DNA from: an uncultured Planctomycetota bacterium
GTDB lineage: Bacteria; Planctomycetota; Planctomycetia; Gemmatales; Gemmataceae
Assembly: GCA_963849325.1 (NCBI GenBank)
Contig: CAWKHF010000009.1
Span: 288,001-352,000, forward strand
DNA length: 64,000 nt
Direction: 5' to 3'
The translations under genes and the position numbers were made by a program. This document shows positions 45,344 through 51,121 of this stretch, piece after piece. Every line of letters starts with the position of its first letter. Within the stretch, counting starts at the first letter, position 1. Below the pieces are notes generated by a model that worked only from the letters and a program-made list of their open reading frames with translations, had not been told where the DNA came from and made no database searches.

Positions 45344-45410
45344 CCGCCCGACAGCATGGACGCTGTTGCGACCAGGCTTCCTACGACAAACAAGAGAGAC
45401 GAGTGCAAGG

Positions 45411-47263
45411 ATGCATCAAACTCTCCCGATCGTGATAGGTCCGTATCGGATACTGGAGCCGCTCGGCGCGGCGGCATGGGGCACGTTTACAAGGCCGAGC
45501 ACCGGCTGATGAAGCGCGTGGTCGCGTTGAAGATTGCCAGTCGAGTGCGGCACGGAGCGCGTGGCTCGGCCGTGCGGAAGCGTTTTCGCCGCGAGGTGGA
45601 AGCGGCCGGCCGGCTCCATCATCCCGGCATCGTCTCGGCCTACGATGCCGGCGAAGTGCGCGGCCGGCTCTACCTGGCGATGGAGTACGTCGAGGGGATC
45701 GACCTCGAACGACTGGTGGAAGAGAGCGGGCCGCTTTCGGTTGATCTCGCGTGCGAAATCGTGCGGCAGACGGCGGAGGCGCTGCATCATGCGCACGAGC
45801 GCGGCCTGCTTCACCGCGACATCAAACCCTCCAATCTCATGCTCGCCGCACCGGGCGTCACCGTGAAACTGCTCGATCTCGGACTGGCCCGGCTGGCGCA
45901 TCCCTCTTTCCCAGAAGAGGAGGAGGCGGCAGACGATCCGCTGTGCGGCACGCCGGATTTCATGGCCCCCGAATGGGGCCGCGACGTACAGCCGGCGGAC
46001 GTGCGCGGCGATCTGTACAGTCTGGGTTGCACCTTCTATTTCCTGCTCACCGGCCAGGTGCCTTATCCCGGCGGCAGCGGTACGGAAAAACTATTGCGTC
46101 ACAGCCTCGACGCGCCAGCGCCATTGCGGCAGGTGCGGCCGGAGACGCCGCCGGCTGTCGTCGAGGTCGTCGAGCGTTTGATGGCCCGCGATCTGGAGGA
46201 TCGCTATCCGACGGCGGCCGCGGTCGCCGCTGCCATCGCAGCCATCCACGACCCCAAATCGGATCGAGACGGCATTGCCGGCGCGGTGCAGCCGACGAAT
46301 GCAGCTCGACGCATGGTCTCGTCTCGATTCGCCATTGCGGCGCTTGTTGCCGTCTTGCTCGGGGTAGGGGCGGCCGCCGGGGCGCGACGGGTGGTCGAGA
46401 AACCTGTCGCGGCAACAGCGCAAGCGAGGACGTTCGCGCCGTCGTTTCGGATCGAAGGTCGAGAGGAAGGGTTTCCTTCGCTGGCGCAGGCGATTGCCGC
46501 CGCACGCGATGGCGATGTAGTGAGCGTGCATGGCTCCGGCCCGTTCGTCACGGCATCGCTCAATTGTCGGGGCAAAGCCTTGACGGTGCGAGCGGCGCAG
46601 GGAGTGCGGCCGCGGCTGGAGCGGAAACCGACCGGCGATCCCTCGCGCGCGCTCTTCCACACGGATCGGGCCTTGACCCTGGAAGGACTGGACCTGGTCG
46701 TCGCCGACAACGCGCCGATGATCTGCTGCGAAGGAGCGCCTTTGCACCTGACGGACTGCCGGTTGACGACCGGCGCCGATGGCGTGGCCGTCATCGCCCG
46801 AGCCGCCTCCGAGGTGGTCGTGTGCGGTTGCCGCATCGATGCCGGGGCCGTCGGGCTTTCCGTGGAGGCCGGCCAGGGTTCGATGTGCCGCGTTCACGTG
46901 CGCGAGAGCCGGATCACCATCCGAGCGAAGATGGGGGTGGCCCTGTCGTTGTGGGCGTCAGAGGTGCCGCAGCCGACGCCGGTTGAGCTGGAGTTGGAAG
47001 GCAATACCATTCAGGCGGGGCGGACAGCGGCCCTGCGTGCCTTGCCGGCGGGCCTGGCGATCCGGGCTCGCGGCAACCGTTTCACGTTCCACACGGCCCT
47101 GCTCAGCTATACGGGATACGCGGACCCGGACGCCTGGCGGCGGAACACGGCCTGGGCCGGCGGCGACAACGCCTATGAGGGACCGCCATCCTGGTTGTGG
47201 GTCGAGGGACAGCCGGTGCCCCTCGCCACGGTGCCGATGTCCGTCCCCACGAGCCCGGGATGA
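45411..47263 (+). CDS. Hanks-type Ser/Thr protein kinase with TM helix and extracytoplasmic beta-helix-like domain (frameshift near 45465)
   Basis: YRILEPLG/GGMGHVY, VALK, HRDIKPSN, DLG, GTPDFMAPE, DLYSLG. Confidence 0.92.
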
Positions 47264-47437
47264 CAAACCTCCGGATAATAGGAAAGGTGCAGTAAGGTGC
47301 ACCGATCCCGTTATTCGGAGGAATGAGCGGGGCAAACCTTGCCATACCGGATTATTTACCGGCCTCGGATGGTGACGGCTTCGTGCGTTGTCTTGTCGCC
47401 GTAAGCCGCGGGATGGACGGGCTTTTCGCTCGTTTCG
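47255..47437 (-). ncRNA. Conserved structured RNA domain 3' of aptamer A
   Basis: About 110 nt align closely with 48426-48535; covarying hairpin CGGCTT/AAGCCG; terminal CCTCCG...CGGAGG stem. Confidence 0.6.
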
Positions 47438-47529
47438 TCCCTTCGGCAGAGCAGCCCTCTGGCCGAAATGCTCGACCAGAGCTGTCTCTTTGCGTCACCG
47501 CCTCACGACGGTTTTGCCTTTTCGAGGAT
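47438..47529 (-). promoter_or_regulatory. Cyclic di-GMP-I (GEMM-I) riboswitch aptamer A
   Basis: AAGGCAAA-ACCGTC-GTGA-GGCGGT-GACGCAAA-GAG...CTC-TGCCGA; GNRA-capped P2 and paired P3. Confidence 0.8.
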
Positions 47530-47669
47530 AATCGTCAGTCAATCGCCGTAAATGCCTTAACCGCCTAGAGGCAAGGCGTTTGCAGTTTACCAAGCATCAC
47601 ACAGAAGGCACGCTTTCCCACGGTCTTGTACAGCATGCCGTGCCCATTCCGTGCCCTCCTGGTGGCCTC

Positions 47670-48185
47670 TCAGGACACGGACTTCCAAGTGTGGCGATGG
47701 ACGACCGCGAAGACCGTTCCGATGGCGATGCCGTACTTTTTTGCCAAGGCGGGCATACTCATTCTCCCAGCGACTTTTCTGATTTGCCTTACCGTGGCTT
47801 CGTTTAGTCTCGATGACCAGTGTTTCTCGCCTGCTTTTGCGTAGGGCATCGACCAATAATGCCGCATGTTCCCAGATCGGTCAGTGTATTCAAGGTTCTT
47901 CACCCCGTTGTGCGAACGCACGCCGTCTTTGTGGTTGACGTGAACGTCTGGATCGACGGGACCGAGAAAAGCGGCGGCTACCAGGCGGTGAACCTTCCGG
48001 TTGATCGGCTTCCCGTGGCGGGAGAGGCGCACGATCCGGTAGCCGTGGCCGTTGTCCCGGGGGGTGAGGATGCGAGGGAGCTTATCGGGATTAGACGGCA
48101 AGCGACGGACTCTTCCGAGATTGCTTACTTCGTAAATCCCCTCGAATTCAGCGACGGGCTTCCATTGCTCCACGGAATCGTCCAT
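47670..48185 (-). CDS. NUMOD4-HNH (I-HmuI-like) homing endonuclease with C-terminal HTH
   Basis: EQWKPVAEFEGIYEVSNLGRVR; VHRLVAAAF...VNHKDG..SHN..KNLE; AAGGAGG SD. Confidence 0.92.
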   Translation of the reverse strand: MDDSVEQWKPVAEFEGIYEVSNLGRVRRLPSNPDKLPRILTPRDNGHGYRIVRLSRHGKPINRKVHRLVAAAFLGPVDPDVHVNHKDGVRSHNGVKNLEYTDRSGNMRHYWSMPYAKAGEKHWSSRLNEATVRQIRKVAGRMSMPALAKKYGIAIGTVFAVVHRHTWKSVS

Positions 48186-48366
48186 GAGGCTTCCTCCTTG
48201 CAAGTAGGAGAAAGCCTAGAAGAATGTCCCTTTACGGCAAGTGGAGCGGCGCAGAATCTTTTGGAGCTTGGTCTTGGATTCTTTCAGCGTTTTAACAAGG
48301 CGTTTCTGCTTACGTCGATGGTGGTGAAATAGCAGCTCTTGGATTTACGCCAGCAGATGTCGGATG

Positions 48367-48550
48367 TGCGAGGTATGGTTTCCTCCGGGGGAGAGGGCCG
48401 GGAAGGTATACCGTACCCTACATCATTATACGGAGGAAAGAGCAGAGCAAACCTCGCCATACCGGATTTTTTCCGGCCCCGGATCGAAGCGACTTCGTGC
48501 GTCATCCTGTCGCCGTAAGTCGAGGATGGACGGGCACTTCGCCACGATCC
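48367..48550 (-). ncRNA. Conserved structured RNA domain 3' of aptamer B
   Basis: Homolog of 47255-47437; CGACTT/AAGTCG hairpin, GGTATGG/CCATACC and TTTCCTCCG/CGGAGGAAA stems. Confidence 0.6.
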
Positions 48551-48642
48551 ACCCTTTCGGTAGCTCGGCCGACACAGGGATGATTCCCCAAGTCCCGGAG
48601 CTTTGCGTCCCACGGTTTCCCGTGGTTTGCCTTTTCGAGGAT
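48551..48642 (-). promoter_or_regulatory. Cyclic di-GMP-I (GEMM-I) riboswitch aptamer B
   Basis: AAGGCAAA-CCACGG-GAAA-CCGTGG-GACGCAAA-GCTCCGG...CCGAGC-TACCGA, close to the Vc2 consensus; G at the G20-equivalent position. Confidence 0.9.
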
Positions 48643-48782
48643 GAAAGGCGTTGCGATCCGAGCGCGACAGCGAGGTTCGCCCCCGAAAGCTGCCACCAAA
48701 GCTGGCCGCTTCGTTTGCTGCACAACTGTAGTACGCGATCGCAAGGCAAGCAAACCGCGTCTCCGCTTTCCCCTGTCGGTAT

Positions 48783-49806
48783 TCAAGCCGCCGACGCATC
48801 GCGCCCGGGACGGCCGACGTAGGCGTTTCGCGCCGCGCCCTCTCGCCCCATCGGCACCGCCGCCAGGTCCGGCGAGGATTCCTTGAGCAGATACAGCGGC
48901 CGAACCTTGACCTGCTCGTAAATCCGACCGACGTATTCGCCGACGATGCCGAGACAGCCGAGGATGGCGCCTCCCATCAGGAACAGGGCGGCCAGCACGA
49001 GCGAATCTCCTCCGATGCTTGCGCCGAACAGCGCCCGCATCAGCAGGACCATGCCGTGTCCGGCACCGAGCAGCGCGAACAGCCCTCCCAGCACAAACGA
49101 AAGCCGCAGCGGCAGCTTGGAGAACGAAAGCATGGCATCGACGGCCAGGGCCAGCATGCGGCGCAGCGTGTACTTGGTGACACCGGCGCCTCGGCTGGCG
49201 GGGTGAAACGCCACCGTCGTCGTGCGAAAGCCCAGCCAGTTGACCATGCCGCGTAGAAACCGGTGCTTCTCGTGCAGCCGCAGCAGGCTGTCGATGGCCT
49301 TGCGCGACAGCAGCCGATAGTCCGACGCCGCCGAGCTGACCGGCGTGTCGCTCAACCAGCGCATCACCATGTTGAAGGCGCGCGACGACAGGCGCTTGAA
49401 GGGGCTGAGGCGCGGATCGTCCTCGCGGAAAGTCAGCACGATGTCGTGTCCCCGGCGCCACTGTTCCAGCAGAGCGGGGATGAGATTGGGCGGATGCTGC
49501 AAGTCGCTGTCGAGGGTGATGACCACGTCGCCGCGCGGCGTGTTCCATGCCGGCCGTCAGGGCCGCCTGCTGGCCGAAATTGCGGCTGAAGGACAGGTAG
49601 CGAATACGCGGGTCGGCGGCGGCCAGGCGGCGCACGAAATCGAGGGTGCCGTCGCGGGAGCCGTCATCGACGTACAGGATCTCGATGTCATACTCGGCTT
49701 CGAGGGGGGCCAGGGCGGCGCACAGTTCCTGGTGGAAGTGGGGCAGCACTTCCTCCTCCTCGAAGGCGGGGCAGACGATGCTCAGCTTGCAAACAGGCGC
49801 GGCCAT
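48783..49806 (-). CDS. GT2 polyprenol-phosphate glycosyltransferase (GtrB-like; frameshift near 49535)
   Basis: VDDGSRDGT, SRNFGQQAAL, LDSDLQHPP, two C-terminal TM helices, GEYVGRIYEQVK.RPLY. Confidence 0.92.
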
Positions 49807-49835
49807 TTCCTTCTCCGTTCTAAGCCGGCTCCCCT

Positions 49836-51121
49836 TCATGCGGCGTGGGCCGAGACGCCGGGCGCATCCACCGACGCCCCGGACTTCGCCGCCAGCGCCC
49901 GCACGAGGACCATCCCATAGGCGGCGGTCAGGCACAGGGCGGCCAACGGGTGCAGTCCCAGGGCGTGGACGCGGTTGGCCTGTGGCGCAGGCCGGCCAGC
50001 ACGCACAGCATCAGCAGCACAAAAGCCGTCCCGGCGAGCATCCGTGCCGGGCGCGGCCAGCCGTCGCAGCGGCCACTGAGGACGGCCCAGGCCAGGGCCG
50101 GGGCCAACAGGACGTAGGTACACGCCTCGGTCGCCGGGCCGCATAACGTCATCCAGCACGTTCCCAGCGCCAGGATAGTCCCCAGCACCTCGCCACGCGG
50201 CCGGCCACGCAGCCGAGCGGCTACGCACAGCACGGCGCATCCGGCGGCACTAAGCAGTTGGACGCCGACGTAACCGAGCGGCGTCAGCGGCAGGTGCCAC
50301 ACGCGGATGAGCAGCCACAGATCGCGGTAGGCCATGTGCGGCGGCCAGTGCCAGCGCTGGTCTTGGCCCAGCCGTTGCAGCCAAAGGGCGTACTGGCCGC
50401 AGACGTAATCGCTGTGTTGGCAGAGGAACGGCAGCGCGAACGTCAGCGCCAGGACGAGCACCAGCCGCGGCGTGCAGCGCCGCGGATACGAGGCCGCCAG
50501 CAGCAGACCAACCGCCAGCGGATAAACCTTCAAGGCGGTGGCCAGGGCGATGAACGCGGCCGCCGACGTCCAGCGCTTGCGCTCGGCCGCGGCCAGCGCG
50601 GCCAGCAGCAGACCGATAACCAGCGGATTGGGTTGGCCGTTATTCAAGCTGCTCAGCGATAGTGGCACCAGGAGTAGGAACAGGATGCCCTTCTCACGCG
50701 GCGTCCGCGCAGCTGGGGCCGTGCGCAGCCACCAGGCGAAACCGCTCAGCAGCGCACCGGCGTTGAGCAGACGCCACACGACACCGCCCAGGCGCACCGG
50801 CAGATGACTGAAGGGCACCAGCAGCACGGCCGTCGTCGGACTGTAGCGGAATTGGTCCTGGTCCGCCTCCCAGGAAGTGCGGTACAGGTCTCGTCCAGTC
50901 TCCCAGTCGGCGCCGGCCTGCGCCCAGGTTGTATACAGGGTGCGCTTGTAGGGCTGGACGGCGGCACGGACGCAGACGGCTCCGACGACGACAATCCAGA
51001 CGAGGATTGCCGCTCGCACCCACGGCTCTCCGCCGCCAGTAGGTCCGGCGAGCCGAGCCGGACAACGAGTGCCGCTCGGCTCGCGGCACCTCCCTGGCCC
51101 TCGTAGCGCTTCAGGCAGCAT
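49836..51121 (-). CDS. GT87/DUF2029 GT-C membrane glycosyltransferase (C-terminal frameshift near 49985)
   Basis: DLY...FRYSP, NNGQPN, KVYP, many TM helices. Confidence 0.85.

Follow-up and report, generated by a model that had tools for sequence, protein, structure and literature searches.

A Gemmataceae RNA gene with a central c-di-GMP-I aptamer, probably split by a phage-like integrase element that brought its own replacement body

Known c-di-GMP RNAs and the Gemmataceae locus

Riboswitch aptamers are almost always read as switches in the 5' untranslated region (5' UTR) of a gene. In a 64,000-nt stretch of Gemmataceae DNA (the window), the minus strand carries two aptamers of the class I riboswitch for cyclic di-GMP (c-di-GMP-I), and a conserved 3' domain stands behind each; the two units, copy A and copy B, are separated by 1.1 kb that includes an integrase fragment and an HNH endonuclease gene. 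The structure of the RNA, its distribution in the family, the integrase fragment and parallel twins in other genomes are described below, and the locus is read, with slightly more confidence than doubt, as an RNA gene split by a phage-like integrase element that brought its own replacement body. Loci with homologous RNAs or aptamers are designated by L numbers and genomes by G numbers.

As in the c-di-GMP-I riboswitch, the aptamers are full-length and helix P1 competes with an alternative helix, as in expression platforms, whereas here the aptamer forms the middle of a ~280-nt RNA whose 5' and 3' domains are paired across it by two helices (LR1 and LR2), and the orthologous Gemmataceae RNA keeps its sequence while the downstream gene changes or is convergent. 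In PMC3627812, merRNA of Bdellovibrio bacteriovorus is presented as a c-di-GMP riboswitch within a 445-nt non-coding RNA without a conserved downstream open reading frame (ORF), proposed as a store or sponge of c-di-GMP and reported as confined to Bdellovibrio. The likeness to that system is one of idea, a riboswitch in a long RNA with no conserved downstream ORF, and is drawn from its description, not its sequence; the case for merRNA rests on massive expression, whereas that for the Gemmataceae RNA rests on covariation and gene context. Bc1 of Bacillus thuringiensis (PMC11218506) resembles the Gemmataceae RNA in its extended conserved downstream region and in a ligand response that is not simply control of the downstream gene, but has two local rho-independent terminators, whereas in the Gemmataceae RNA the helix before the U-run includes a strand that precedes the aptamer.

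Integrative elements that target tRNA, tmRNA, csRNA and ffs genes and restore the gene from attP are described in PMC12540744, whose target list holds no riboswitch RNA. The window resembles these systems in having an integrase beside a structured RNA gene, an identical flanking core and a replacement of the displaced part; it differs in that the target contains a riboswitch, and that the crossover would lie near the 5' end of the aptamer, so that about 200 of the ~280 nt would be replaced and not a short 3' end. Among the papers listed for c-di-GMP riboswitches combined with Planctomycetes, or with Gemmataceae/Planctomycetota, there was no description of this RNA, and the best-ranked literature on riboswitches, attB and integrases (titles and starts of abstracts) named no riboswitch as an integration target, both searches covering journals other than subscription journals. 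As far as these searches reach, the large c-di-GMP RNA of Gemmataceae is previously undescribed, and a riboswitch RNA gene would be an undescribed kind of attachment site.

The RNA places a known aptamer inside a large, long-range-closed structure that is found family-wide, with its own promoter-like motif and without a fixed downstream gene, and adds to the one example from Bdellovibrio a further case of a ligand-sensing non-coding RNA that is concrete and can be tested. Mobile elements entering such a gene would swap most of it for their own compatible copy, and the fit of element 3' strands to host 5' strands would amount to a natural experiment in which the long-range helices are put to the test. 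Annotations should avoid the term tandem riboswitch for the twin, and copy B would be better labelled a displaced remnant.

Structure and distribution of the RNA

The initial annotation had placed two c-di-GMP-I aptamers on the minus strand, and both were recovered as members of that clan by an Rfam cmscan search (copy A, RF01051 at 76.5 bits against a gathering score of 35; copy B, the GGC variant RF03167 at 59.8 bits against a gathering score of 59, and RF01051 alone at 60.8 bits). Both copies are full-length (RF01051/CL00126) and above the gathering score, and ligand binding is predicted for each. Mean column identity between the copies was 78% over 358 aligned columns, and a repeat search returned two imperfect blocks (57 nt at 79%; 54 nt at 83%) together with one exact 17-nt repeat (the 17-nt core). 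Alignment also agreed with the earlier description of aptamer stems that have diverged yet still pair, followed by 3' parts that are more similar.

Copy A appears to belong to an RNA of about 280 nt (about 48719-48435, with predicted ends) that has the aptamer at its centre and reaches about 77 nt further 5' than previously annotated; its helices are listed in Table 1. Covariation was judged by pair counts, against shuffles and slid partners. With 61 3' domains as input, helix 1 and hairpin Hc were picked unprompted by RNAalifold, and a first pair count on this alignment gave 88.1% paired cells, against 36-52% with slid partners. In alignment A4 (42 full-length sequences; 5'H1, LR1, LR2, P0, P1 and Hc counted), 94.0% of cells were paired, against 33-50% with slid partners, 33 of 45 pairs had changed on both sides (reached in 0 of 500 shuffles), and the covariation score was 0.454, against 0.233 shuffled and at most 0.138 slid. 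Two-sided changes were present in 10/10 pairs of 5'H1, 9/10 of LR1, 9/9 of LR2 and 5/5 of Hc.

LR1 (about 17 bp) and LR2 (9 bp) both join the 5' domain to the 3' domain across the aptamer. Over 60 sequences LR1 was 92% and LR2 94.6% paired, and neither covariation score was matched in 300 shuffles; LR1 pairs differ among homologues (GGUGGUUC:GAACCACC, GGCAGAUG:CAUCUGCU and GGCGGACC:GGUCCGCC, for example), and an inward extension added 3 and 4 more pairs to give the total of ~17 bp. In the 61-sequence alignment, helix 1 was 94.2% paired and showed both GC to AU and UA/UG/CG exchanges, and all 7 pairs of hairpin Hvar showed two-sided changes; the compensatory exchange noted earlier between the copies (CGACTT/AAGTCG vs CGGCTT/AAGCCG) lies in this hairpin and is real. 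The minimum free energy (MFE) fold of copy A alone recovered 5'H1, LR1, LR2, helix 1, Hvar and Hc (-137.6 kcal/mol, z -4.04), and 0 of 100 shuffles folded as well.

The proposal that the 3' region is a conserved, covarying RNA domain and not a chance repeat was thereby borne out, by pair counts and RNAalifold, and two details of the earlier description were revised. The GGTTTGC tract, thought to pair with the aptamer's GCAAAC, is instead the 3' strand of LR1, with its partner in the 5' domain, outside the range first considered; and, against the statement that neither copy shows a classic U-tailed terminator, a run of at least 4 U directly follows the conserved RNA in 34 of the 48 homologues without an element stem (at least 3 U in 42 of 48). 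Termination of the transcript at LR1 and this U-run is predicted from the conserved arrangement. Upstream, in 70 aligned loci (150 nt before the leader), the most conserved blocks are ATTTGC and CTAGAGT, separated by a spacer varying between 17 and 18 nt, and this motif probably serves as a promoter.

Several further pairings were considered and rejected. A local terminator helix T (CNGGG:CCYYG) was 87% paired and was rejected because 123 of 300 shuffles reached its covariation score; its G's belong to LR2 and its pyrimidines to LR1. The anti-aptamer pairing GGYUUGCC:GGCAAACC has several positions that pair in only 2-10 of ~60 sequences, a proximal register of helix 1 contains a pair present in just 15 of 61, and an anti-terminator GUCCCC:GGGGAC consists of three near-invariant pairs only, with zero covariation. 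A local hairpin competing with LR1 (5'H2) was weak (77.6% paired, its score reached by 1 of 300 shuffles) and is largely superseded by the LR1 extension. Homologues with insertions of 40-90 nt in P2 or Hvar were excluded from the alignments; such insertions occur in L090, L111 and L122, several with inverted repeats, and in L076 the Hvar site holds a long array of short repeats (GTCAGGA/GTCAGAA-like) that also has an inverted partner. Short tandem repeats stand just after the RNA in L049 and L051.

The GGGRUGG strand that follows the aptamer has two possible partners. Paired with the leader's CAUCC it makes P1, which closes the aptamer and continues into P0 (CGCC:GGCG); paired with GUCCRUCCC, a mimic of the leader further downstream, it makes helix 1, and the two arrangements are mutually exclusive. 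Variant leaders were drawn from 20 further regions under weaker model hits, yielding 16 usable full units, and in all seven whose third position is A (six CACC, one UACC) the P0 partner is U, against 14 of 59 units with CGCC leaders. The RNA may accordingly be pictured as a closed LR1/LR2 scaffold that would hold the aptamer while its interior toggles between P0/P1 and helix 1, the latter capturing the P1 3' strand through the mimic; c-di-GMP would favour P0/P1, so that the exposed C/U-rich strand changes, this direction of the ligand effect being the presumed one. Because helix 1 coexists with LR1 and LR2 in the MFE fold of copy A, ligand binding would re-pair the interior of a constant scaffold and leave the formation of LR1 unaffected.

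BLAST matches to the RNA were obtained in 22 of 61 related genomes (source genome included), several running through the 3' domain. A 22-nt leader pattern occurred exactly once in each of 63 species genomes, most of them titled Gemmataceae, Gemmatales or Planctomycetota and 5 with other labels; 71 units were retained after removal of duplicates. A covariance model of the 3' domain (R1), built with helix T included, which affects only its score, had matches in 87 of 151 family genomes, representing 58 of 90 genera, with a single copy in 82 of the 87. Two copies at most 2 kb apart were present only in the window and its overlapping locus L036, among 84 sources matched. It seems somewhat probable that, taken as a whole, these observations describe a structured RNA gene common to Gemmataceae, of which copy A is the expressed copy in the window.

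Pfam was run on the ORFs of 54 loci (the set before the last 16, L110-L126), and Pfam-supported ORFs were used, since gene calling based on GC content at third codon positions missed genes in lower-GC genomes. In many loci the leader is preceded, at a distance of about 120-140 nt, by the end of a same-strand GT2 glycosyltransferase gene. Downstream, a convergent gene with Pfam support comes next in 10 of the 54 (L047, L049, L051, L052, L054, L073, L085, L104, L106 and L108), and same-strand genes vary: ClpS or a TIM-barrel gene in 8 loci, an integrase in 3, a gene with a metallo-beta-lactamase fold in 2 and an unannotated ORF of ~400 aa in several, so that no downstream ORF is conserved among the loci, as in merRNA-type RNAs, and a 5' UTR of a regulated gene is a conceivable setting for the first 8. 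A plain expression platform, duplicated locally, would be expected to lack covariation and always to sit 5' of ordinary genes; covariation was found, a convergent gene follows in these 10 loci, and copy B in the window abuts the stop codon of a convergent kinase gene. One orthologous RNA thus appears to keep its sequence while its neighbour changes. Just after the U-run, a (CAU)UUCCGUUAAA motif is conserved in L050, L087, L089, L094 and L121, and in the genomes with this motif the same strand carries, further downstream, an unannotated ORF of about 390-420 aa.

The element between copy A and copy B

The region between the copies contains the 5' part of an integrase gene. Residues 1-29 of the fragment are 62% identical to the N-terminus of the L064 integrase (E 2e-12), and twelve further residues, in a shifted frame, agree at 10 of 12 positions (83%, E 1e-5). 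Open integrase ORFs start 7-8 nt after a stem of the same type in L041, L064 and L075, and in L074 the ORF is broken and the spacing wider; the L041 and L064 integrases match Phage_integrase (Pfam), and that of L075 is assigned by N-terminal similarity only. A tyrosine integrase thus adjoins the RNA gene in these three loci, as a fragment does in the window. The initial annotation had counted a CCTCCG/CGGAGG stem as the closing stem of the RNA. By a motif test, such a stem is present in only 13 of 61 aligned homologues, with an integrase directly behind it in several; its 3' arm is the Shine-Dalgarno sequence of the integrase ORF in L041, L064 and L075, and related stems contain direct repeats. 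It is better assigned to element DNA outside the conserved RNA. The stem after copy B may be a relic of an earlier element.

The HNH gene is present as a single copy in the source genome and was found in no other RNA locus compared, and its product is 37-40% identical to phage HNH endonucleases (8 best of the matches in 2227 phage records); it looks like cargo of the element. The earlier suggestion of a mobile unit associated with this endonuclease therefore came close as regards the mobile unit, whereas the duplication is tied to a tyrosine integrase. The GC content of most 200-nt windows in 47200-48600 is 0.50-0.60, with one at 0.645, and that of the flanks 0.66-0.70.

The 17-nt core flanks the element identically, sequence diverging on either side of it, and within both window copies reads AAAAGG, whereas the remaining 59 sequences of alignment A2 all have AAAGGG; the core is the candidate crossover site, the occurrence in copy A lying on the attL side. 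Copy B begins at the core and is without the promoter motif, CGCC leader and 5' domain, its leader being replaced by ...GACGATT, so the two units are not the equivalent twins they were first taken for. The LR1 3' strand of copy B (GGUUUGCC) nevertheless pairs 8/8 with the resident 5' strand GGCGAACC, and its LR2 strand AUCCGAG pairs with CUCGGAU through 7 Watson-Crick pairs (by eye). Because these 3' strands match the resident 5' domain, copy B would once have been joined to it, and it is best read as the original resident body, left as a displaced remnant. Up to Hvar, copy A is 97-100% identical to L037 and L038 of the same genus; over its last 65 columns the closest relative is copy B (83%), P2 is only 39% alike between the copies, and segments of copy B are nearest to other genomes.

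From these observations the twin is best read as the attL and attR of a decayed integrase element of which ~1.1 kb is left. The Gemmataceae RNA gene would serve as attachment site for tyrosine-integrase elements that bring their own copy of the RNA, starting with the P1 core. On integration, a crossover at the 17-nt core would join the host promoter and 5' domain to the incoming body, giving copy A (attL), and leave the resident body promoter-less behind the element as copy B (attR); the element would since have decayed to an integrase fragment, the HNH gene and one arm. Mobility itself is presumed from this arrangement.

Extra R1 copies were found in G022, G069, G131 and G178. In G022, G069 and G131, a copy with a canonical leader is followed by a stem and an integrase (intact-looking in G022 and G131, frameshifted in G069), and a second copy with an altered leader stands about 110-150 nt behind direct repeats like those in the stems. 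The P arm of the window can be aligned with the DNA that precedes the second copies of G069, G022 and G131, the junction CGATT|ATCCTCG is common to the window and G069 with homologous arms, and the block common to each pair always includes ATCCTCGAAAGGG (13 nt in G069, 19 nt in G131, ~105 nt in G022). An integrase ORF also follows the RNA in G061 and G062, and a broken one in G063. The second copy of G178 (L136, G178:C9:379000-386000) is truncated, starting in the middle of aptamer helix P2, and shares its 3' domain, stem and downstream sequence with the full copy on another contig; this pair is a segmental duplication, unlike the attL/attR pairs.

Table 1. Features of copy A, copy B and the DNA between them, in minus-strand order (positions in the window).
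Feature	Position	Strand	Remarks
Promoter-like motif	48725..48753	-	TTGCTT (48753-48748), 17-nt spacer, TACAGT (48730-48725); promoter function predicted
5' domain of copy A	48651..48719	-	conserved in 70 loci; ~75 nt
5'H1 hairpin	about 48712-48685	-	inside 5' domain
LR1 5' strand	48683-48667	-	inside 5' domain
LR2 5' strand	48662-48654	-	inside 5' domain
Leader and aptamer of copy A	48556..48650	-	aptamer 48641-48556, RF01051 76.5 bits
P0 5' strand CGCC	48650-48647	-	pairing shown by counts
P1 5' strand	48644-48638	-	leader of copy A
17-nt core ATCCTCGAAAAGGCAAA	48626..48642	-	identical in both copies; sequence diverges on either side
3' domain of copy A	48435..48555	-	RNAalifold, pair counts, covariance model R1 (112.7 bits), MFE fold
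Helix 1	48555-48547 with 48531-48523	-	3' domain
P0 3' strand GGCG	48543-48540	-	3' domain
Hvar hairpin	48522-48490	-	3' domain
LR2 3' strand	48486-48478	-	3' domain
Hc hairpin	48476-48462	-	3' domain
LR1 3' strand	48460-48444	-	3' domain; then GC and UCUUUCC
CCTCCG...CGGAGG stem after copy A	48382..48436	-	contains GGGTACGG; read as integrase-proximal arm
Integrase pseudogene fragment	48219..48376	-	ATA start, in-frame stop 48286-48284, then shifted frame
HNH homing endonuclease gene	47670..48185	-	intact, phage-type (NUMOD4 and HNH_3; Pfam 2.5e-13 and 8.1e-9)
Element P arm upstream of copy B	47530..47669	-	direct repeat GGGCACGG-AAT-GGGCACGG at 47656-47634
Copy B	47322..47529	-	core 47529-47513, aptamer 47527-47441, 3' domain; R1 104 bits
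LR1 3' strand core of copy B GGUUUGCCCC	47338-47329	-	end of copy B 3' domain
CCTCCG...CCGGAGG stem after copy B	47268..47321	-	TGCACCTT twice; resembles the stem before the L041 integrase

Competing readings and the surroundings of the locus

An ordinary cis-acting c-di-GMP-I riboswitch with a long platform, in which the ligand decides termination at LR1 and the U-run, read-through ancestrally reached ClpS and a TIM-barrel enzyme, and the twin still arose from a mobile element, is possible, though we lean away from it. Mutually exclusive P0/P1 and helix 1 are what such a platform looks like, a U-run stands behind LR1 in most native-type homologues, the same strand encodes ClpS downstream of the RNA in L042, L044, L045, L048, L083 and L101 and, directly behind the RNA, a TIM-barrel enzyme in L057 and L100, and Bc1, with its long platform and two terminators, is a precedent (PMC11218506). 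The MFE fold, which has helix 1 alongside LR1 and LR2, gives this account no thermodynamic link between switch and terminator, however; the RNA is kept where the next gene is convergent, a conserved 5' domain pairing across the aptamer is unusual for a platform, and the full replacement body on the elements suggests that the RNA itself is what is kept. On the favoured reading the RNA would be a ligand-sensing RNA gene rather than a gene-proximal switch; it may act as a sponge or small RNA (sRNA). A more specific version, which we put forward tentatively and regard as rather doubtful, is a stand-alone, constitutively terminated ~280-nt RNA that exposes one of two C/U-rich mimic strands and acts in trans or as a c-di-GMP buffer, with prophage-like elements using the gene as attachment site, carrying a compatible body and placing their integrase behind the host-promoted RNA; if true, this placement could couple element behaviour to c-di-GMP.

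The favoured reading, an RNA gene split by an integrase element, has to be set against several observations besides the alternative helices and the same-strand ClpS and TIM-barrel genes. The 5' end, the 3' end and the expression of the RNA are all deduced from its sequence, the window's promoter-like motif was not called by a simple sigma-70 scan, and LR1, with its 5' strand ~200 nt ahead of the 3' strand, does not look like a typical intrinsic terminator. P0/P1 had no freedom to vary in the main set because the leader was the search pattern, and the seven variant leaders may go back to only a few evolutionary events, or even to one. Variable gene context alone is weak evidence, because c-di-GMP riboswitches are often not upstream of homologous genes (Weinberg et al., PMC2864571). 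The 83% identity of the two 3' ends is not predicted by a single crossover; gene conversion or a related donor would account for it. The pairs in G022, G069 and G131 are each split over different contigs of metagenome assemblies with 4-5% contamination, so that the limits of those elements are not defined, and among the further genomes with integrases no second copy was found by BLAST in G061 or G062, nor by R1 in G062 or G063, G061 giving two weak R1 hits (E 0.05-0.1).

The shared 3' end, each copy's being the nearest relative of the other's, would also fit a plain local tandem duplication followed by divergence, without site-specific integration; this appears improbable given the mosaic divergence of the copies, the integrase fragment and arm-type repeats between them, and a junction that recurs in G069. 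Distinctly improbable is a functional pair in which copy A controls the HNH gene and copy B drives antisense transcription into the kinase gene: both aptamers exceed the Rfam thresholds and the HNH gene lies ~200 nt downstream of the copy A stem on the same strand, but two aptamers in one leader before one gene, the tandem-riboswitch architecture, were not found, as 1.1 kb and a gene separate the copies, LR1, LR2 and P0 cannot form in copy B because its promoter motif, leader and 5' domain are absent, close pairs of copies are confined to the window and L036, and no other locus compared has the HNH gene. HNH endonucleases often reside in introns, and the reported case of a c-di-GMP-II riboswitch controlling a group I ribozyme had led the initial annotation to consider a ribozyme. 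An aptamer-gated ribozyme (cleaving or splicing), or an HNH-marked, intron-like homing unit that duplicates its flanks, is hardly credible here: Rfam ribozyme and intron models gave no match in 47150-48800 at E up to 10 (the other weak hits being only ffh sRNA and Clostridiales-1, E >3), so no intron core was seen around the HNH ORF, the conserved helices together make up a closed rod from which hairpins branch, with no catalytic core motif recognised by Rfam, and the HNH gene is unique to the window locus.

The source genome (8.16 Mb, 14 contigs) contains five c-di-GMP-I aptamers, of which only the two in the window have the 3' domain. The other three (L002 at G000:C4:412440-415533, L003 and L005) are all without it, and that of L002 is followed by a classical hairpin with a U-tail and then by an ORF resembling a Flp-type pilin (by eye). 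A Ser/Thr kinase ORF (45356-47263, plus strand; Pkinase 7.9e-45 by Pfam) lies downstream of copy B and is convergent with it, its stop codon (47261-47263) lying 5 nt beyond the terminal stem of copy B. Upstream of copy A on the minus strand are GT87 and GT2 glycosyltransferase genes. The GT2 gene is split over two frames by a frameshift, ORF 48502-49935 (minus strand) covering Pfam profile positions 1-77 and ORF 48783-49526 positions 82-164, whereas in relatives it is a single ORF of 340-382 aa; the frameshift reflects either a pseudogene or an assembly error.

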